Virus record (IMG/VR): IMGVR_UViG_3300045988_140174
Coordinates: 98,574 to 162,573 of that record
Length of the DNA: 64,000 nt
Source: a virus
Reading direction: 5' to 3' (one strand)
Position numbers and translations under genes: made by a program. Each line of letters begins with the position of its first letter. The first letter of the stretch is position 1. Below are positions 1-10,488 of this stretch, piece by piece. The notes under the pieces are model-generated. The model was not told where the DNA came from and made no database searches. It saw nothing but the letters and a program-made list of their open reading frames with translations.

Positions 1-93
1 TGTTATAGTTGTTATGGTTGTTATGGTTGTTATCGCAGATATAGTTCAAGGTATGGTAAATATGCTGCAAAAAATGTTCAAATTAGATGTTAA
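1..93 (+). CDS. Cys/Tyr-rich repeat peptide, C-terminal fragment (5' end outside window); candidate RiPP precursor core
   Basis: Frame 1 reads CYSCYGCYGCYRRYSSRYGKYAAKNVQIRC then TAA at 91-93. A radical SAM gene starts 12 nt downstream. Confidence 0.35.
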   Translation, partial: CYSCYGCYGCYRRYSSRYGKYAAKNVQIRC

Positions 94-104
94 AGGTGAA
101 TTAA

Positions 105-1541
105 ATGTTAATAAATAAATTAGATTTAATGGGATCCAGCAGCTGTGATTTAAAATGTTCTTATTGTTATATTACAAAAAATTGTTCATTTTATAATTAT
201 GATTCCGCTGTTCAAGAAGCTTGGGAAACTGGATCTTATTTAACTACTATTAAACAAGTTTTTTCGAAATTGGATGCAGACCCTACTCAAATAAAAGATT
301 TAGAATTTTGGGGAGGAGAACCTACATTACATATTAAAGAAATGGCTTCTCAAGGAAAAGCATTAGGATAGTTATTTCCAGAAGTTGATTTTGTATTAAT
401 CCCAACTAATTGGTATTAGATTAATATGCAAGCCTTAGTAGATTTTATTTACAATTTTAATGATGGTATCTCTCCTCGTGGAAGTAAATCAAAAAATGTT
501 AATTTTCATTTACAATTATCCATTGATGGGCCTCCTGGAGATTTTAATACTTATGGTCATAAAGTACCTTGGGATACTTATAAAAAACAATTTGATGATT
601 TTTGTTTTTATTTAAAAGAAAAAGAAAATTCTGGAAGAGAATTAAAAAATATTAATATTATTTTCGCTATTAGTGGAACCTCTTAGCAAAAATATATTTT
701 AAAAAATTTAAATACTTTAGATAAAATAAAAGAATTTCAAGAATATATTAAAAAAGTTTGTAAATATGTAAATGATGAACTAAAACAATTTAAAACTATA
801 GATATATTTTTAGGAACTCCAATTTGGACTCCTACGGTAGCTATTCCAGATTCGACAACCACTGAAGAAGCATTAGAATTAAATAAAATTGCACTAATGT
901 TAGAATATAGCGATTATGTTAATGGAATAAAACCTTATAGTATTGATGCTAATGAGATTCAAGGGTTTCATGCAACTTATGGAGAATTAAATGTATTGGA
1001 TAGAAATCACGAATGTCCAGAGTCTAATGAACATGCAATTACATTAATGCCTGATGGAACTATTGCTGAATGTCCCTGTACCTTTTTATAGAATTTAGAT
1101 TCTTATAAACAAGAATTATTAAATAATAAATAGTATTGGGAATATAAATCTTGTTTAATTAGAGATGGTAGTTTTTATAATCCATTATTAGGTGATGAAA
1201 AACTTGATAATTACCATAGTTGGTATGTTTATGGTGGTGGATTTATTGGGACTAATTCTACTTATGCTAATTTAAATTTAAATATGGCTTATGAAATGGC
1301 TTTATCAAGATAGATTGATTATAACTATGCATTAAATCCAGAGTTATTAATGAGACATTATATGGCTATTTTTACAACTGCTGAATGCTATCGTGAAAAT
1401 GTTAATGTGACTCATAATCATTTTTTAACAGATCATAACATGTTTAGGCGTTGGTATAATGGTTATGCCGAATTAGGATATAAAGATCATCGAGAGAAGA
1501 TTAAAAAAATTATGGAAAATGTATTAAAAGGAGAAAATTAA
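105..1541 (+). CDS. radical SAM / SPASM-domain enzyme (TAG codons read through)
   Basis: Frame 0 is continuous from ATG 105 to TAA 1539 if TAG is sense; ORF pieces 105-371, 426-686, 897-1091 and 1350-1541 share the frame. CDLKCSYC (Cx3Cx2C), GGEPTLH and a C-terminal CPESN...AECPC cluster. RBS aaaggtga. Confidence 0.7.
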
Positions 1542-2758
1542 TGTTAGTACAAGAACAAGATAATCTCTTACTGCGAGATATAATAGAACGTAATTATTAT
1601 ACATTTTTTCGTAAGGATGAGTATGTAAATAAAAATTTAAATATTTCTTTTTTCTATGATAATGATTATACTGATTATAAAATTATTCCTAATTATGAGT
1701 CATTAGAAGATAAAAATGCTAACTTTGAATAGATTTATAATAATTTTAAATTATTTTTAAATTATTATAAAAGCCAAGGGTTTAATGCTAATATTAACAT
1801 TCATGATGATAAATTTTTTGATAATTTTGAATTAAATTTATCACTATTTAATTTAATTTATGAACAAGAAATTAAATTTAAATCATTAAATTTTTATATT
1901 AGTTTATATAAATTTGAAGATTTAAATTCTCTATTTAATAAAATTAATATATTAAATAATAAATTTCATATAAATTTTGTTTTTAGCTTATTAATTTCTC
2001 AAATTGATTTATTTAAAAATCAAGATATTAATAATTTAAATTATAAATTAAATATTTTAATTCCTCCACAAATGCCGTCAGAAGAATTAATATTTAATTA
2101 GAAAATAATTGATAGTAATAATTTTAATATTGATTAGTATATTGAAGTTGATTCTGATTTATGGACTATCGAAGCGATAGAGGATTATTTAAAATATTTA
2201 AATTATTTAATGGATAATTTAAATGATTTAAATGAAATTTTCTTTACAAATTTACCTATTGCTTTACAAGATTAGCATGTATTAGATAATACAAATTGTA
2301 AAAAAAATTGTGATTTCCAAAATTCATTAAATGTTTTGATAGTAGATTTAAGCATTAATTTATGCCACAAATTTCAATTTAAAGATTTAATTATTGGTAA
2401 TTATATATATAATGAAGAAAATAATAAATTAGAAATTGTAAGTAAAAATCTTCCAACGATAATATTAGGGGCGCATTTAAAACGTTCTAGCACTCCTCAT
2501 TGTGAAACTTGTTCTTATGTTAATATATGTCAAGGTTTTTGCTTTATGCGCTCTTATTTAAAATGCTATAATCCTATTATACCTATTCAGGAAAGTTGTT
2601 TATTAAAAAAAATAAAATATAATTTTATTTTTAATAAATTAAAAAATCAAAATTTTAATATTGATAATAATTTAATTATTTCAGATTTATATAAGCAATA
2701 TTTACATCAAATCTTAAAACATTAGGGAGGGAAAAATAATGTATTTATCAATACATAA
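1541..2758 (+). CDS. SPASM/twitch Cys-cluster protein (TAG read through)
   Basis: Frame 2 from ATG 1541 (overlaps the preceding TAA) to TAA 2756, with 5 TAGs. C-terminal CHKF...CETCSYVNICQGFCFMR...C resembles a SPASM auxiliary cluster. Confidence 0.5.
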
Positions 2759-3107
2759 TAATTATTATTATTTATTAATTAATACTCCTCTTACTTATCC
2801 AATTTGTTTAGATGAAGAAGAAGCTCTAGCTTATTTAAAATATATTAATCGAGATGACTATCAATATAATAATATTGCTAATTATGATGTTCTTGATTAT
2901 GAGAAAATAATATATATTGAAGTTTCTTTCCCAAATAATGAAGAAATTCAAAAATTACTTACTAAAATTAAAGATAATATTGCAACCGGTTATGCATTAA
3001 GGAATTAGTATAAAAATCGTCTTTTTGATTTTAGCAATTATAAAGAGGAGCGGCTTTATGAACCTTCAAGCGCCAAATATTGTGGATTGCCAAGAGATAA
3101 CTTGTGA
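2739..3107 (+). CDS. small acidic protein, paralog of 25273-25539 (possible PqqD/RRE-like partner of radical SAM enzymes)
   Basis: ORF 2739-3008 continues through one TAG to TGA 3105. RBS gggaggg. Shares NYD.LDYEK.IYI.V.F..NEEI with 25273 ORF. Confidence 0.45.
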
Positions 3108-4461
3108 TATGATAGAAGATTATCTTGCTAAACGATATCAATAGCAAGTATTAAAAACAAAATTTCCTTTTGATGTAGAAATACAATTAATTTTAGCTAG
3201 AAATTGTAATTTAAACTGTACTAATTGTTAGGCTGGTTGTAATATTAATGATAAAAATGAATTAATGACATTAGATGAAATTAAATACGCTATCCCTAAA
3301 TTAAAAAAATTTTTTCAAGATAAAATTTTATAGATAGTTTTATTTGGTGGAGAACCATTATTAAATCCAGAGTATGAAGAAATTTGCTATTATGTACGAA
3401 GTGAATTACCAGAAGCCTCAATAGATATTTATACCAATGGTATTCTTAAATAGAATTGGACTGAAAAAGACTATGAATTTGCAGTAAAAAATGAAGTACA
3501 TTTTACACAAAGTTTATATCCATTAGGAGAATCGTATTTTAATAATACTTAGAAACAAGAAGAATTAATGACTAAATTAGACATTAAACATGAAATATGT
3601 GGAAATCGTCCTTTTTTTATTAAAGGAGGTTATAATAAAACAGGAAGTTCAAATCCGAATCGTTTTTTTTAGTGTTGTCATTCAATGTTTCCTCCTCATT
3701 TTTATTTATTTAAAAAATAGCTATGGCGATGCGCACCAACATTAAGTTGGGATAAAATTAATATTCCTTGTTTCCCAGAAGATTATTTAAATATTGATAA
3801 TTTGACAGAAGAACGTTTTATCGAATATTGTAGCAAACCATTAAAAATATGTAAATATTGTGGAAACTCAGATGAATTAGGATTTGGAAGTGATGAAATA
3901 ATAACTTGGCATCATTAGAAAGATTTGCCCAGTAATTATGATTAGACTTTATATGATTTATATATAAATAATTATAAATTATATTATAAGTATGTCCATG
4001 ATTGCAAAACTATTCTTCCTTGTTTTGATAATTAGTATTTTATAGATAATATTAAAGCAGAGGATTTGCCTTCTCATCCAAGTATAATGTTTTTAAAAAA
4101 ATTTAAAACAGGATTAGGAGATGTATGTATCCCATTTGATAAAGAATCTTGTTAGGATATAAAAAATTTATTAAAATTTAAAAAATTAATTTTAAATTAG
4201 AATAATTATTTAAATATAAATTTTTATTTTATTTCATTAGATGGAAATAAGCCAGCGAAATCTATTATTTATCGAATGTTTCCTCCCGCTTCTTGCGATT
4301 TAGAAGGGAATATTTATTTATTAGAATCAGACAATCCCAATAATTTTTATCAAATATTTTTACAAAATAGTTATTTAAAAAAGAAAATCTGTATTTTAAA
4401 CTATAAAGATTTATTAGATAAGAATTATTTATCAAATAAATTTAATGAAATGGATGGTTAA
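3058..4461 (+). CDS. radical SAM / SPASM-domain enzyme (about 14 TAG codons)
   Basis: Frame 1 from ATG 3058 to TAA 4459, reconstructed by hand. CNLNCTNC (Cx3Cx2C), FGGEPLLNPE and a later C-rich CCHSMF...CFPEDY...CKYCGNSDE region. ORF 4276-4461 is its 3' piece. Confidence 0.6.
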
Positions 4462-4464
4462 TAA

Positions 4465-6003
4465 ATGAGACAATTTGAATTTCCTTATAATTTTGATAAA
4501 AAATTGTTATATATTTTACAAACATTTACATCTGGTAATGATATTAATTGTATTTATTTACCTCCATATCTTAAAGATTATTAGACAATTTTACGAACTG
4601 CTGAATAGGCAGAACAATTAGATAAAATGTCTCGACAAGAATACGAAGATCATCTAAATTTTATTAATTCATTATTCCCAAATAAAATTTAGATTTTATT
4701 ATAGAAAACTAATATTTTTTTAAACGCTGAACTCGTAAAATATTATATTAATTTAGGTGTTAAAAATTTTTGTGTAGCATCTATTGAACAAGCTAAAATT
4801 ATTAAATAGATTGATTCAACAATTAATATTGTTGGATCAATTGCTATGCAAATTACATAGGAAAAAATAATAAATAATTTACAAGAATTTTCTCTTTATT
4901 TTGATAGTTTTGTTTTACCATTTTCTGCATCTCGTCAATTATCAGAATTAAAAAAATTACCAAAAAATTTTAATTATATTTTATTAATCAATTCTTTGTG
5001 TAGTATTAAATGTAATGGAAAAAATCATTGGAATTTTGATTATAAAGAAGATAAAGAGATATTTTGCCCAGGAAAATTAGGAGAAATTCCTTGGAATGAA
5101 TCTGCCAAAATTCGTCCAATGGATTTAGGATTTTTTGATCCTTATATTTCAGTATATAAAATTCAAGACCGTGGTTGGCCAACAGAAGATATATTGCGTG
5201 ATTATATTTTATATACTAGTGAGTATGATAATCTGCCTGGTATTATATACAATACAAATTATTATACCTCAAAAACTAATTGTTATATGACGTTTACTGA
5301 TGAATAGTATTTGCCTTGTGTAATTCGTCAAGCCCAAAGAATTAAATATTTAAATTCTAAATATGAATATATTGTAATGGTAGATGAAAATGATTTAGTT
5401 TCTTAGGAAGTATTAAAAGAAAATAATATCCATTATATTTTAATTCAATAGGAAATATATAAAACTCAATTCGACCGTTTTCAAAAAACGTTCAATAAAT
5501 TTAAAATAATTGATTATTTAGATAAGTATGAAAAAATTTGTTGGTTAGATGCAGATACTATTTTAATTAAGAATATTGATTATCTATTTGATAAAATGTC
5601 TACGGATTGTTAGTTTTTAGGATCTATTGATAATAATTTAAATAGAATTGAAGGCGGAATTTTTATTATTTCAGATAAAATTGATTTAGATAATTTTAAA
5701 ATACAATTATACAAAAATTAGTTTATTTGCCCTCATGATGAAGCTTTTTTAACCATATATTTTTAGACACAATATAATGTTAATCTTTCTTATATGGCTC
5801 CTTTTCATTTACATTTTTCAGGATATATTAAATTATTTAATTATAAAAATTTTCCCTTAATTAAAAAAATATTTTATGATTTATCTCCATTAGATTTTAA
5901 TAAATATATAGACACTCATTTAAATGAAATAACTAATACTATTGATTATTGGAATAAATTTAGTAATACTTTAAATAATTTAGAGGAACAAATAAATGAA
6001 TAA
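4465..6003 (+). CDS. two-domain protein: N-terminal Cys-containing domain + glycosyltransferase family 8 (TAG read through)
   Basis: Frame 1 from ATG 4465 to TAA 6001; ORFs 4996-5307 and 5794-6003 share it. GT8 hallmarks NCYMTFTDE.YLP and WLDADTI. Confidence 0.5.
5278..5610 (+). repeat. direct repeat copy 1 (GT8 segment duplication)
   Basis: About 93% identical to 7149-7490 at nucleotide level, with a short indel in the middle. Confidence 0.8.
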
Positions 6004-6010
6004 TTGTTAT

Positions 6011-7135
6011 ATGACATTAATGACTAATGAAAAATTTTTACCAGCAGTAATAAGATGCAATTAGTCATTAAAATATTATAAATCAAAATATCCATTTATA
6101 GTACTAATTCCAGAACCGGACCAATATTTACAAGAACAATTAATAAAACATGATATATTATATAAAGTTATCCATGTAGATAAATTTCAAGAAGGTAATA
6201 TTTTATTTACTTATAATGATACAATTAATAAATTTTAGATATTTAATTATGTAGAATATGATTATATATGTTTTATTGATGCTGATGTTATTTTTTTTGG
6301 AGGTAATATAGATACTGAATTTGATTTGGCTGAAAAAGAAAATTCTAAATTTTACGGATATTTTGAACAAGATCATTGGGATAATCAATTGGTAGAATTC
6401 GAAAGATTAATGGGCGGTTTATTTATTATTTAGCCAGATATAAATTTTTATCCTCAGCTTAAAAATTTAGTTTATAATAATCAATAGATGTTTAGTGATG
6501 ATGAAGAAATTTTAAAACTATTATTTTCATCTTTAACAAAAAAACATTCTGTCCCAGAGCCTTACACTCATTTTGGAGGTTTTATTAAACCTTGGGAATT
6601 AAAAAAAACCAATTTATTTATTGAATACTTTTTTTATGAAAATTTATCAATTGATGAAGTTGGATATTGGTTAGATCATATAGCAATTTTTTTAGGAGAA
6701 TTTCGAACTTTAAGTAATTGTTATGATAGATATAATTTTAATTCAAATAATGGATTTTTTGTAATTCCATAGACAGAAAAAGATATAGAACAATGTATTA
6801 ATTATTAGATTTTATTTTCAAATTATGGTCATGATTATCCATTAATTATTTGCATTGATCCAATATTATTAACCCCAGAAAATGATTTATTAAATAAATT
6901 AGATAAGGCTACTTGTAGTTTTAAATTAATTCACAATATAAAAAATAAAAATTTATACTAGCAATTTAAATTTTTAGAATAGGAATTTAAAGGAGAATAT
7001 AATAGAATATGTTTTATCTCTAACTTAAATTTTCAATTAGAAGAAAATTTAGATTTATTATTATCTCCTTTTACTTCTTCAGAAATTAGATTAAAAAAAT
7101 TAAAAAAATATAAGGATTCATTAATATACATTTAA
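6011..7135 (+). CDS. glycosyltransferase family 8 (TAG read through)
   Basis: Frame 2 from ATG 6011 to TAA 7133; contains ORF 6488-6772. MTLMTNEKFLPAV...FIDADVIFFG (DxD). Confidence 0.55.
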
Positions 7136-7136
7136 T

Positions 7137-7862
7137 ATGAAAAAAATTAATTGTTATATGACATTTACTGATGAATAGTATTTGCCTTGTGTAATTCGTC
7201 AAGCCCAAAGAATTAAATATTTAAATTCTAAATATGAATATATTGTAATGGTAGATGAAAATGATTTAGTTTCTTAGAAAGTATTAAAAGAAAATAATAT
7301 CCATTATATTTCTATTAGGCAAAAATTATTTTCTTAGGCAGCTTCTGGACGCTTTCAAAAAACATTCAATAAATTTAAAATAATTGATTATTTAGATAAA
7401 TATGAAAAAATTTGTTGGTTAGATGCAGATACTATTTTAACTGAAAATATTGATTATTTATTTGATAAAATGTCTATAAATTGTCAATTTTTAGGATTTT
7501 TTAATAAATTAATTAATCAAATGGAAGGAATTATTTTTATTTGTAGTAATCAAATTGATTTAAATAATTTTAAATATTTTTTAAGTCAATCATAGATAAA
7601 TAAAATTAATGACGAAGAAATATTAAATGATTATTTTTTACGACAAAAAAATAGCATTTTTTTTGAAAAAAATATGTCAATAATTCATTTTAGTGGATTT
7701 ATAAAATTATTTAATATTTCAGAGGGGTTTCCATTAATTCATAAATTATTTTTTACTATGTCTAATAGAGAGTTTAATAATTTTATTGACAAATATTTTA
7801 CTCAACTTAATGATATAGCAATATAGTGGACTGATTTAGTAAATACTTTAGAAAAAATCTAA
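7137..7862 (+). CDS. glycosyltransferase family 8 paralog (TAG read through)
   Basis: Frame 0 from ATG 7137 to TAA 7860. N-terminal ~60 codons are near-identical to 5283-5450. WLDADTILTENIDYLFD. Confidence 0.5.
7149..7490 (+). repeat. direct repeat copy 2 (GT8 segment duplication)
   Basis: Near-identical to 5278-5610. Confidence 0.8.
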
Positions 7863-7865
7863 AAT

Positions 7866-7894
7866 TTGATTTTTTTTAAAAAATATAATATAAT
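7866..7894 (+). promoter_or_regulatory. sigma70-type phage promoter (class A consensus)
   Basis: TTGATT - 17 nt - TATAAT, followed by atatatagaaagttaag leader. Confidence 0.6.
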
Positions 7895-7905
7895 ATATAT
7901 AGAAA

Positions 7906-7937
7906 GTTAAGGAAGAGAAAAAATTTCTTCCTTAACA
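7906..7937 (+). promoter_or_regulatory. 5' leader hairpin preceding tRNA (gttaaggaag...cttccttaac) followed by atatata|G junction
   Basis: Perfect 10-bp inverted repeat. Analogous hairpin at 17330-17353. Confidence 0.5.
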
Positions 7938-7942
7938 TATAT

Positions 7943-8017
7943 AGGTCATTGGTGTAGCGGCTAGCATAGCGGTCTCCAAAACCGCGGACCTAGGTTCGAG
8001 TCCTAGATGGCCTGCCA
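7943..8017 (+). tRNA. tRNA-Trp (CCA)
   Basis: Acceptor aggtcat/atggcct, anticodon arm gcggt-CUCCAAA-accgc, T-arm ctagg-ttcgagt-cctag, CCA encoded. Confidence 0.7.
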
Positions 8018-8035
8018 TAGATTTTATACACAGGA

Positions 8036-8533
8036 GTGATTTGTATAAAATTTTATATTTCGTATTTTTATGCAGTTCGTTTTATGAAGCCGAATACTGT
8101 GGCTTTATCAACAGCCAAGAGCGACCCACAATGGTTTCATCATGGCTGGGATAGAAGTATAGTATATGAAGATAAAAATGGCGTTTTAAACGGATTGCGT
8201 GCTGAACCATTTGTTCCTCAAACATTTGAAAATGCTGAGGGATATTGCGGTCATTGTGATAAAGACCCTGTTCATTGTAAATTCATTAAAGCATATCGTG
8301 AACAATTAAGCAATCTTGATTTTGACGATATGATGCGTCGATTCAAAAGTATCGCTGAACGAGTGGTTAAAAATGGTGAAGAGCCTGAAATTGTTTTGCT
8401 CGTCCATGAAGCACCGAATAATCCTTGTTCTGAACGCTGGCCCTTGTTTGAGTGGTTTAAAAAGCATGGGATTGATGCCGAAGAGTATCCAATTATAAAG
8501 ACACAAAAACCCAATCAAATATTTAATTTTTGA
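8036..8533 (+). CDS. hypothetical protein (Cys/His-containing)
   Basis: 165-aa ORF, TGA stop. Start ambiguous: GTG 8036 or ATG 8084. Confidence 0.5.
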   Translation: MICIKFYISYFYAVRFMKPNTVALSTAKSDPQWFHHGWDRSIVYEDKNGVLNGLRAEPFVPQTFENAEGYCGHCDKDPVHCKFIKAYREQLSNLDFDDMMRRFKSIAERVVKNGEEPEIVLLVHEAPNNPCSERWPLFEWFKKHGIDAEEYPIIKTQKPNQIFNF

Positions 8534-9312: not shown

Positions 9313-9384
9313 ACCGGATTAGCTTAGGTGGTAGAGCACGTGGATGGTAACCACGAGGTCAACGGTTCAAATCCGTTATCTGGG
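9313..9384 (+). tRNA. tRNA-Thr (GGT), 1:72 mismatch
   Basis: Anticodon arm cgtgg-auGGUaa-ccacg, var aggtc, T-arm aacgg-ttcaaat-ccgtt. Acceptor accggat/atctggg has an A1.G72 mismatch. Confidence 0.5.
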
Positions 9385-9676
9385 AAATTATAGTTATGCT
9401 AGGTGAGGCCGCCAACAGCAACAATTTAATAATAAACCCTTGGTATAATATTAGACTTGAATAATAATATTACTAATAGTTAAATGAAATCGAAAGTAAT
9501 ACTATATATATACATTATACCAACAAAAAGAAATAATAAAGTAGATTAAACAAAATAAGTTAAATTGTTGCGATAAGTGCCATTATTTATAATTGGTTAG
9601 ATTTAGATGAGAGGTAGAGTTTCTTTTAATGGATTCTTCTCGTAAACACCTGGAAGATTAAAAAGAATCCTTGTTA

Positions 9677-9762
9677 TGCTCGAATGGCGGAATTGGCAGA
9701 CGCGCTTGGCTCAAACCCAAGTATTGGAAGATGTGTGGGTTCAAATCCCACTTTGAGCACCA
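9677..9762 (+). tRNA. tRNA-Leu (CAA), type II
   Basis: gctcgaa/tttgagc acceptor, anticodon loop cuCAAac, long variable arm, CCA. Confidence 0.8.
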
Positions 9763-10100
9763 TTAAATAAATACTGAAACGGCTCAGGTCCTATCGGCTG
9801 ATTGGGCAGGCGAGGAAAAGTGAGGTAGGTTGCGGTGGAAATCCCTTGAATTAGCGTAAAAAAACCTTCGCCTGAGAAACTGGAAGTGGTTTCTTACGAA
9901 TTGGAGTAGTGTAAGCGTGTGGCTGAAACATGACCACCCGCCCAATCTTTAGTATTTATTTAAAAAAACATAGGAACTATCTGATGTGAAAGGCATCTAG
10001 TGCAGTTAGAGCACAATAAAAATCTAACTCGTGGTGAGTGGCGTTAAAACGCATGAGCGCAGATAGAGGTATTTTCATCGCATACCTGCTTTATTCCTAT
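9763..10100 (+). ncRNA. unassigned GC-richer structured non-coding region (candidate ncRNA)
   Basis: No ORF. Long-range complementarity gattgggc(9800s)/gcccaatc(9940s) and several local hairpins. Sits between a tRNA and a promoter. Confidence 0.3.
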
Positions 10101-10410: not shown

Positions 10411-10488
10411 GGCCCCATCTGACTAAATGGCTTAGGTGGCAATCCTCTCAAGGTTGAGATGTCAGTTCGAATCTGGCTGGGGTCACCA
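10411..10488 (+). tRNA. tRNA-like, anticodon CUC (Glu-like) with atypical D-arm
   Basis: Acceptor ggcccca/tggggtc, anticodon arm caatc-cuCUCaa-ggttg, T-arm gtcag-ttcgaat-ctggc, CCA. No regular D-stem could be drawn. Confidence 0.35.

Follow-up and report, generated by a model that had tools for sequence, protein, structure and literature searches.

A TAG-recoded phage gene cluster combining radical SAM proteins, glycosyltransferases and a repeat-tailed protein as a candidate RiPP-like maturation system

Here we describe a gene cluster at positions 1-7862 of a 64,000-nt stretch of viral DNA (positions 98,574 to 162,573 of IMG/VR record IMGVR_UViG_3300045988_140174; hereafter the window). The cluster joins the end of a gene for a repeat-tailed protein to genes for radical S-adenosylmethionine (rSAM) proteins and family-8 glycosyltransferases (GT8). 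It belongs to an uncharacterised, phage-typical protein-maturation system that resembles those of peptides made by the ribosome and then altered post-translationally (RiPPs).

A recoded gene cluster at the start of the window

When the + strand of positions 1-8100 is translated with each stop marked separately, long frames appear that are broken solely by TAG and closed by TAA or TGA. Seven open reading frames (ORFs; g1 to g7 below), each with 1-12 in-frame TAG codons, are intact solely when TAG is read as sense, and under this reading the genes listed in the original prediction, all on the + strand, are present at its coordinates. The minus strand of positions 1-7862 holds no ORF of at least 80 aa, and an Rfam scan of the same positions returned no family match. 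The features of the cluster, together with the tRNA that permits its translation, are the following.

1-93, + strand: end of the putative substrate gene, read in frame 1 (last 30 codons and a TAA stop; truncated by the window edge)
105-1541, + strand: g1, radical SAM protein of 478 aa with 6 in-frame TAG, core enzyme 1 of the pair (by motif and family)
1541-2758, + strand: g2, partner of g1, 405 aa, 5 TAG (by Cys motifs and synteny)
2739-3107, + strand: g3, conserved small acidic helical protein, 122 aa, 1 TAG
3058-4461, + strand: g4, radical SAM protein, 467 aa, 12 TAG (PF04055, E=1e-11)
4465-6003, + strand: g5, 512 aa, 12 TAG, fusion of an unknown domain and a GT8 domain (by profile searches)
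5996-7135, + strand: g6, divergent GT8-like glycosyltransferase with a D-A-D motif, 379 aa, 8 TAG (34-35% identity to the C-terminal domain of g5, g5C, and to g7)
7137-7862, + strand: g7, GT8 glycosyltransferase, 241 aa, 5 TAG (PF01501 27.8 bits, cutoff 24.3)
20053-20126, + strand: tRNA with anticodon CTA, an amber suppressor (ARAGORN; Rfam tRNA 55 bits)

The features that characterize a code-15 phage, namely in-frame TAG in conserved genes, a tRNA-CTA and phage hallmark genes, are all found here, and the residue inserted at TAG is assumed to be Gln (PMC9523058). The hallmarks in the window comprise 28 tRNAs, an endolysin, PhoH, RNA and DNA ligases, Sak4 and a GIY-YIG endonuclease, and one protein of 830 aa shares 41% identity with proteins from 'huge phages' of 462-735 kb. 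Among GenBank phages, neither a megablast of 25 kb nor a tblastn search with the putative substrate found a match, and tblastn with a g1 paralogue encoded elsewhere in the window gave one weak partial match. The phAss-1 group (PMC10607447) was considered as a relative and found no support from DNA matches.

Three islands of 21-25% guanine-plus-cytosine (GC) content, at positions 1-8000, 14000-18000 and 22000-26000, lie interspersed with the tRNA array; elsewhere the genome has 32-44% GC. TAG accounts for 39% of the inferred Gln codons in the island genes (75 TAG, 116 CAA, 3 CAG) and for 6.6% in the rest of the window, where GC content is 36.8%. Being rich in TAG, the islands are therefore translatable only while the suppressor tRNA is active; this tRNA is needed for translating every gene of both modules, that is, of the present cluster and of a related unit at 21664-25539 (module 2). 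The endolysin gene bears three TAGs. Late expression has been proposed for recoded phages (bioRxiv 10.1101/2021.08.26.457843), and the TAG pattern, including that of the endolysin, would fit such timing without proving it. The same GC drop over the cluster is seen in sister phages; the genes may have been acquired from a recoded phage of lower GC content, or be subject to a mutational or expression regime of their own.

The window edge truncates the cluster, and the missing upstream sequence was taken from L001, a 128-kb IMG/VR contig that is 98% identical to window positions 1-7978; there the low-GC island starts ~3.9 kb further upstream. Positions 1-7862 are the downstream two-thirds of an ~11.8-kb, low-GC, TAG-rich island in a large TAG-recoded phage.

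The first core enzyme, g1, has a CxxxCxxC motif at residue 14, with C14, C18 and C21 invariant; in rSAM enzymes this motif holds the [4Fe-4S] cluster that cleaves SAM. Only three further Cys are conserved in the family (C304, C323 and C428) and there is no canonical SPASM signature; g1 would carry one auxiliary cluster. Its PF04055 score of 17.5 bits lies below the cutoff of 29.5, and many members of the g1 family have a precomputed PF04055 match. The nearest PDB entries are TigE (E=4e-7), ChlB (1e-3) and CteB (7e-3). As for g2, all 7 Cys columns of the SPASM signature, which binds two auxiliary clusters, are kept, with CxxCx5Cx3C from residue 321 (TIGR04085 23.6 bits, cutoff 27), and CxxxCxxC, the motif expected of a radical SAM protein, is absent from the window copy. 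The description of 1541-2758 as a SPASM-type Cys-cluster protein is thereby confirmed, its full 7-Cys signature included. Since CxxxCxxC and the SPASM motif are both intact in the g2 counterparts from module 2 and from two related loci (L004 and L005), the window g2 is a degenerate rSAM protein with a retained auxiliary-cluster domain, and it is probably a non-catalytic Fe-S partner. Its profile finds TigE (9e-8) and CteB (3e-3) in PDB.

Both 105-1541 and 3058-4461 had been called radical SAM/SPASM enzymes. The rSAM motif is present in both g1 and g4, but a canonical SPASM signature is found in neither. Nor are these proteins anaerobic sulfatase-maturating enzymes (anSMEs), the competing assignment that had been raised: TIGR03942 scores 21.2 bits with g1 and 29.5 with its paralogue, against a cutoff of 349, and anSME in PDB matches g1 at E=0.02. 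The suggestion that 2739-3107 might be PqqD-like or a RiPP recognition element (RRE) was rejected on testing, as g3 bears no likeness to either. By analogy with HxsD of the bacterial HXS system discussed below, g3 may be a partner of one of the rSAM proteins.

The repeat-tailed protein and its association with g1

Translated in frame 1, bases 1-93 give CYSCYGCYGCYRRYSSRYGKYAAKNVQIRC, the stop being TAA. In L001 this Cys/Tyr peptide is the C-terminus of a 206-aa protein (9369-9989), and the exact C-terminal sequence of the window is found in variants of 198 and 202 aa (P0079 and P0080). What had been described as a peptide is a protein of ~200 aa with a folded N-domain, whose counterparts in related phages have 120-400 aa and in one case a lectin domain, although the description of its C-terminal tail as repetitive stands. 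It had also been considered that the repeat might belong to a large structural protein; in relatives the gene does often lie beside tail-fibre genes, but the protein is small.

The putative substrate (~198-206 aa) consists of a helical N-domain of ~128 aa followed by a tail of ~75 aa. In an AlphaFold2 (AF2) model the first ~128 residues form three helices and a hairpin, with predicted local distance difference test (pLDDT) values of 70-86, and the last ~75 are predicted to be disordered. No Pfam domain was matched in the substrate, and a Foldseek search of the N-domain fold against PDB and BFVD returned nothing below E=0.2, so that the N-domain is unclassified. An N-terminal helix motif, [FL]-[ND]-x-[LIF]-[FY]-x-R-L-x-x-[LI]-[KR]-x-x-H, is visible in several substrate subfamilies. 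Homology of the module-1 N-domain to the 'MxFSWT' proteins of standard-code phages was considered and dropped (hhalign 7.6%), and neither MAFFT alignment A2 nor the matches of profile A3 are counted as homology evidence, because the sequences were in the query.

The tail is built from Y-[S/G]-x-[C/R/D/Q/H] units, with Y-x-C units in places, and K(N/S)VQIRC forms its end. The period is mostly 4, with a period-3 stretch CYGCYGCY, and the spacing of Tyr and other aromatic residues was reached by 0 of 20,000 shuffles. In the window phage the tail is rich in Cys (7-11 per ~75-110 aa), and a conserved Pro precedes the first repeat (…AEQIIP followed by TYS…). Dozens of database variants, with lengths of 198, 202 and 206 aa, have N-domains that are 87-100% identical and tails that vary in unit number and composition.

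The distribution of the g1 family places the system firmly among phages. An exhaustive HMMER search gave 485 representatives at 50% identity (E<=1e-30, full-length match), and a scan of IMG/VR gave 58 loci. The g1 homologues form 71 clusters at 90% identity, all unnamed and from metagenome assemblies, several of them on 170-247-kb contigs, and none of the clusters in the word-indexed protein search had an NCBI or UniRef source. In 55 loci, counted over all fetched sets (IMG/VR, genome and metagenome contigs, and module 2 of the window), the g1-type gene is immediately followed downstream by one of g2 type. The gene content had been considered unusual in a phage, yet with such numbers the g1/g2 pair is phage-typical. 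A limited search of the searchable literature turned up no publication describing this system in phages. In divergent contigs of 179-247 kb the shared gene order is (YcaO)-HNH-like-FkbM-short rSAM-~130-aa protein-substrate-g1-g2-g3-(ThiF)-g4-tailoring genes. The genes other than g1 and g2 are confined to the clade of recoded large phages, and GT8 genes occur only in the nearest relatives.

A periodic low-complexity tail ends the ORF directly upstream of g1 in TAG-recoded, TGA-recoded and standard-code phages of 22-49% GC, in forms such as (YSN)n, (YxQ)n, YSSQ/YNGQ, FNSG/YGFN and [Y/V/H/F]-[D/N]-S-[G/S/T]. When a tail ORF is defined by at least 60% S/G/T/N/D/Y/Q in its last 60 residues and by an end within 700 nt upstream of g1, 24 of 38 loci (63%) have one. 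Of 760 control anchors taken from these loci, 3.9% do. Raising the composition threshold to 70% leaves 17 of 38 loci and 1.3% of controls. This composition test replaced an earlier one that required an exact self-identity of 0.30 or more at lag 3 or 4; only 4 of 38 loci passed the earlier test, which was judged too strict. In one locus (L028, IMGVR_UViG_3300028048_000052) the g1 homologue at 6001-7341 has 4 in-frame TGA and no TAG, so the same system occurs in a TGA-recoded phage; a Phe-periodic tail (…NFTANFTSNKSSNFTNNFSSYF…) lies upstream of it.

Cys is absent from the tails of four sister loci (L002, L003, L004 and L025) and from those of most standard-code loci, despite orthologous g1 and g2. 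Cys-thioether formation is therefore unlikely as the conserved reaction of g1 and g2, and the initial reading of the cluster as sactipeptide- or ranthipeptide-like is not supported. Some sister clusters carry genes that the window phage lacks: a YcaO protein (PF02624) in L002 and L003 (4250-5980) and in L004 (4945-6741), and a ThiF/E1-like protein in L002 and L003 (13090-13851). As the sister tails have no Cys, YcaO would have to act on Ser/Thr or on the backbone. A family of Cys-rich proteins of ~300-360 aa also recurs in sister clusters (L004, 7754-8827 and 15565-16512; L005, 14076-14963); it has no Pfam match and is not found in the window.

The unit formed by the tail protein, g1, g2 and g3 is present a second time in the window, as module 2 (21664-25539), and a paralogue of g4 lies in the third low-GC island.

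21664-22491, + strand: 275-aa protein whose low-complexity tail is rich in Cys, Gly, Ser and Asn; immediately upstream of the g1 paralogue and likely the module 2 substrate
22508-23908, + strand: g1 paralogue, 466 aa (30% identity to g1 over the full length, E=5e-65)
23889-25265, + strand: g2 paralogue, 458 aa, with CxxxCxxC and SPASM motif intact (26% identity to g2, E=6e-22)
25249-25539, + strand: g3 paralogue, 96 aa (45% identity to g3)
15495-16760, + strand: g4 paralogue, 421 aa, 9 TAG (25% identity over the full length, E=7e-20)

Right after module 2, positions 25610-25906 encode a 98-aa basic, Cys/His-rich protein (…CSCPWCSEKTRNKGHRR…) with no in-frame TAG and with weak matches to zinc-binding families. 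The third island (14834-17310) holds a papain-like peptidase (14834-15478; PF00112, E=2e-7), the g4-type rSAM protein and a formate/nitrite-transporter-like membrane protein (E=9e-10), and just upstream of it lies a DctA/GltP-type dicarboxylate/amino-acid transporter (13211-14386, E=1e-46); such transporters are unusual phage cargo.

Downstream of g3, g4 is a radical SAM family member with a PF04055 score of 45.8 bits (cutoff 29.5). It has CxxxCxxC at residue 50, ~7 further conserved Cys and no CxxCx5Cx3C. The profile of its family matches PDB entry 7wzv best (5e-10), followed by GDGT-MAS, NifB, MoaA, viperin and BtrN; the identity of 7wzv was not found in the searchable literature. It is a putative clade-specific tailoring enzyme that looks closer to rSAM enzymes of small molecules, sugars and cofactors than to peptide maturases. 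In g5, residues 1-265 form a conserved domain (C103, C179, C183, H188, W189) that stands alone in relatives and occurs in 10 loci. No relative of this domain was found when PDB was searched with its profile and all five homologues were scanned against Pfam, and a U32-peptidase-like Fe-S hydroxylase, suspected from its Cys pattern, was dropped as no PDB or Pfam match supported it. Residues ~270-512 of g5 are a glycogenin-like GT8 domain with a D-A-D motif, which scores 18 bits with PF01501 as a single sequence, below the cutoff. The divergent glycosyltransferase g6 has a C-terminal extension of ~130 aa without assigned function and no single-sequence PF01501 match. All three glycosyltransferases of the original prediction are real, with PF01501 above cutoff in g7 and a joint profile of g5C, g6, g7 and a homologue from L002 (profile A8) that matches glycogenin-1 over ~190 residues (E=1e-11), D96-A97-D98 being invariant. 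At the amino acid level g7 and g5C are 61% identical, and a direct DNA repeat links their genes (5271-5445 and 7142-7316, 175 nt at 97%, then 225 nt at 84%; in total 5271-5700 and 7142-7574). The start of the g5 GT8 domain is thus duplicated in the first ~430 nt of g7, pointing to recent duplication or gene conversion. Upstream of the substrate gene, the island in L001 further encodes an HNH/zinc-like protein, an FkbM methyltransferase (PF05050, E=9e-10), a short rSAM protein (PF04055, E=4e-11) and a 145-aa protein.

Elsewhere in the window, a tRNA-Glu(CTC) at 10411-10488 is called by ARAGORN only and not by Rfam, and a tRNA-like match at 11152-11221 (35.8 bits) by Rfam only and not by ARAGORN. 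Near the large tRNA array lie genes for a Ro/TROVE-like RNA-binding protein (29057-30586; phrog_850, E=2e-136) and an RNA ligase (40030-41400; phrog_968, E=3e-62), which together could be an RNA/tRNA repair module. A GIY-YIG homing-endonuclease-like protein with an N-terminal coiled-coil/transmembrane region (59567-60535) has 5 in-frame TAGs, the most outside the islands.

A candidate maturation pathway and the alternatives to it

Our findings point to positions 1-7862 encoding a dedicated post-translational maturation pathway for the co-encoded ~200-aa phage protein, a reading to which we assign a probability of roughly 0.6. The modified target is most likely the Tyr-repeat tail of this small protein. 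That the protein is a substrate matured by the neighbouring enzymes is indicated by the enrichment of tail ORFs upstream of g1, the duplication of the unit and the conserved synteny, and modification of a peptide chain is supported by the occurrence of YcaO and ThiF, typical peptide-modifying partners, in sister clusters. From the original proposal of a RiPP-like maturation system with glycosylation we retain the rSAM-centred cluster, the repeat-tailed ribosomal product, the GT8 enzymes and the TAG-recoded phage, but not the Cys chemistry, the RRE or the idea of an unusual gene content.

In the pathway that we propose, the N-domain, or its N-terminal helix motif, would dock the substrate to the enzymes. 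g1 would then work repeatedly along the tail, introducing one radical modification per repeat unit, assisted by g2, which in the window would give only the Fe-S/SPASM part, and perhaps by g3. Our leading guess for the modification is a triceptide-type (cyclophane) side-chain cross-link from the aromatic residue to the last residue of the unit. The layout of the unit, with an aromatic residue, small residues and a functional last residue (N/Q/C/R/D/K/H), favours a side-chain cross-link within or between units, whereas the period-4 units and the Val/Asp variants fit triceptides poorly. The GT8 enzymes would subsequently glycosylate the tail, Tyr-O-glycosylation as in glycogenin being an attractive option, and the FkbM enzyme would methylate the product. 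The outcome would be an appendage of protein size that is heavily modified and probably resists proteases, not a small peptide free to diffuse; it would be made late in infection alongside other TAG-bearing genes such as that of the endolysin, and would be destined for the virion tail or for a role as effector in the infected or lysed cell.

Several observations weigh against this pathway. The match to characterised maturases is limited to the N-terminal rSAM core (~90-200 residues, E 1e-3 to 1e-8), every NCBIfam match is far under its cutoff, and an RRE was looked for and none was found. The N-domains of the putative substrates are heterogeneous (hhalign probability of 0.6% between modules 1 and 2), and 14 of the 38 loci have no tail ORF as defined above within 700 nt of g1. 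Given that GT8 genes occur only in the closest relatives, glycosylation is an add-on, and the resemblance of g4 to non-peptide rSAM enzymes means that some of the cluster may have sugars or small molecules as its targets. The proposed chemistry is read from sequence, the link between GT8 and Tyr is drawn by analogy, and late expression is suggested by TAG content.

A narrower form of the same pathway would have the substrate be a tail or tail-fibre appendage of the virion, in which cross-links and glycans stiffen or protect the structure or mediate adhesion to host or mucus and the hypervariable tail determines host range or adhesion; we regard this as possible, though we lean away from it. 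In standard-code phages the system lies directly after tape-measure, distal-tail and giant LamG-rich proteins (Laminin_G_3, 7.6e-54), one substrate itself has a Laminin_G_3 domain (E=3e-16), and in L004 the genes flanking the cluster encode giant fibre-like proteins and a baseplate protein of the Gp10_C family (E=6e-25). With PHROG, the substrate gives a weak match to 'tail protein' (E=0.002), and tails are hypervariable among near-identical phages. In addition, a 1415-aa upstream neighbour carries DUF2793 and a phage tail repeat. However, both modules of the window phage sit in the tRNA/auxiliary-gene region, and the genes upstream of the island in L001 are not tail genes but encode zinc-ribbon proteins and an M20/M28-like peptidase. 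The N-domain, moreover, has no fold match to any virion protein, and the region from tail fibre to lysis genes is a classic site for cargo genes, which also counts against a structural role.

With regard to hosts, related recoded contigs were binned with metagenome-assembled genomes (MAGs) of Clostridium and other Bacillota, a weak hint. A distant g1-g2-g3-like triad is found in a standard-code prophage of a Peptococcaceae MAG (L008, DIVP01000049.1, 594-9400), by holin, amidase and tail-sheath genes. The triad is interrupted and flanked by three secreted proteins encoded on the opposite strand, two of which are near-identical paralogues of 681 and 682 aa whose N-terminal domains resemble, by eye, copper-amine-oxidase (stalk) domains; no repeat-tail substrate was found adjoining the triad.

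A broader proposal is more tentative, and we would bet against it as it stands: g1 and g2 may represent a large phage-specific class of maturases that builds cross-linked and, here, Tyr-glycosylated virion appendages from small tail-fibre-associated proteins with periodic tails or, alternatively, the product may be a matured repeat-protein effector controlling DNA entry or superinfection, a phage-side mirror of HXS defence. If the former were true, it would be the first radical-SAM chemistry used to build a virus particle.

We consider it improbable that the cluster makes a classical small RiPP antibiotic or bacteriocin, in which the N-domain would be a long leader and the tail, bearing Cys thioethers and glycans, would be cleaved after the conserved Pro and released at lysis against competing bacteria. 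Long leaders are indeed known in other RiPP classes (NHLP, Nif11). The Cys-rich tail of the window phage and the CteB- and PapB-type maturases among the weak matches fit this idea, as do the Pro ahead of the first repeat, found likewise in triceptide precursors (PMC12912966), the papain-like peptidase of the third island and a Peptidase_C39_2 gene in L006. Against it stand the Cys-free tails of the homologous systems, the failure to find an RRE, and substrates of 120-400 aa, one of them with a Laminin_G_3 domain. Nor is there a conserved protease or exporter; the papain-like peptidases of the window and of L056, considered as a conserved leader peptidase, are unrelated singletons.

Finally, the rSAM, GT8 and FkbM enzymes might modify DNA, tRNA, a nucleotide sugar or a host glycan, with the repeat-tail ORF as an unrelated neighbour, which would suit the interleaving of the islands with the 28-gene tRNA array, the resemblance of the g4 and short rSAM cores to MoaA, viperin, BtrN, QueE and NrdG-type enzymes, and the common action of GT8 and FkbM families on glycans, but this is very improbable in view of the 63% against 3.9% frequency of tail ORFs upstream of g1 across very divergent phages, the duplication of the whole substrate-g1-g2-g3 unit in the window, the closeness of g1 and g2 to peptide maturases and the presence of YcaO and ThiF in sister clusters.

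Maturation of repeat-motif peptides by rSAM enzymes is known from bacteria, and the system described here applies the same logic on the phage side. Its g1 family comprises hundreds of sequence clusters and is covered by no curated model. For enzymologists it offers a defined set of a substrate, two enzymes and a small partner, with a natural pseudo-enzyme variant included, and for phage biologists what may be a new tier of chemistry in virions or effectors. Stop-codon recoding can keep a complete biosynthetic pathway under lock: TAG is 39% of the Gln codons here, so that the cluster would escape standard annotation and RiPP-mining pipelines.

Relation to known systems

Judged by the features that define them, the sactipeptide/ranthipeptide, triceptide, anSME and HXS families do not include the system. 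It shares with sactipeptide and ranthipeptide systems rSAM enzymes with auxiliary clusters, weak matches to CteB, PapB and SkfB and, in the window phage, a Cys-rich tail. Unlike those systems (SCIFF-type included), it has no conserved Cys among orthologous loci, no RRE was found, the precursor is protein-sized, and the rSAM-family proteins are paired, one of them degenerate in the window.

The glycosyltransferases recall glycogenin, a eukaryotic GT8 enzyme that glucosylates itself and whose acceptor Tyr lies within the enzyme. The likeness consists in the match of the g5C/g6/g7 profile with its D-A-D (DxD) motif, and the putative acceptor here is extremely rich in Tyr. On the other hand, acceptor specificity is not readable from sequence, and most sister clusters have no GT8 gene.

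TvgB and TigE, which form poly-cyclopropylglycine, act iteratively on precursors built from short tandem motifs (TVGG, TIGSVS; PMC10878394). TigE is the best solved-structure match of both g1 (4e-7) and g2 (9e-8), but only the N-terminal rSAM core (~90-110 residues) aligns, and the Val/Ile targets are not conserved in the tails studied here.

Triceptides are RiPPs with three-residue cyclophanes made by 3-CyFE rSAM/SPASM enzymes (XyeB, YhhB, ChlB, MicB), and their precursors have repeated aromatic-X-X motifs, Tyr-based YSK included, with a Pro before the first motif (PMC12912966). In line with this, the (YSN)n and (YxQ)n tails of sister phages fit Ω1-X2-X3, a Pro precedes the first repeat in the window, and g1 has among its closest structurally solved relatives ChlB, a synthase of multi-cyclophane triceptides (E=1e-3, rSAM core only). 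In contrast to triceptides, the window units mostly have 4 residues, often with Gly at position 3, where no Cβ cross-link is possible, and standard-code tails often have Val or Asp in the aromatic position. The XyeB/YhhB models TIGR04496 and NF041707 score 12-32 bits against cutoffs of 445-450, which places the proteins outside that family, the substrates have 120-400 aa, and two rSAM-family proteins are present instead of one.

The best functional analogue is the bacterial HXS defence system, to which the likeness is architectural. There, the 214-aa effector HxsA, with five HxS repeats, is acted on by the rSAM proteins HxsB and HxsC, the small HxsD being bound to one of them, and the modified protein blocks phage DNA entry (PMC13128918). 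This system showed in 2026 that a protein-sized effector with short repeats is matured by paired rSAM proteins in phage defence (PMC13128918). Both systems have a protein of ~200 aa with a folded domain and short periodic repeats, two adjacent radical-SAM genes and a small accessory protein, and weak HMM matches connect HxsB to the g1 paralogue (E=5e-6) and HxsC to the g4 paralogue (E=2e-6). The HXS models TIGR03978 and TIGR03977, however, give 15-27 bits against cutoffs of 370 and 268, so the proteins are not HXS members, and PADLOC, consulted for known defence systems, gave only rSAM-core matches to viperins. HXS is bacterial (99.7% Pseudomonadota), its gene order is D-B-C-A, it has no glycosyltransferases, and its effector bears a peptidoglycan-binding domain and, once processed at its N-terminus, is exported to the periplasm. 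The system described here, in contrast, is phage-encoded, has the order substrate-g1-g2-g3, includes GT8 enzymes in the window cluster, and presents ~15-30 Tyr-based units on a protein with no recognisable anchoring domain.

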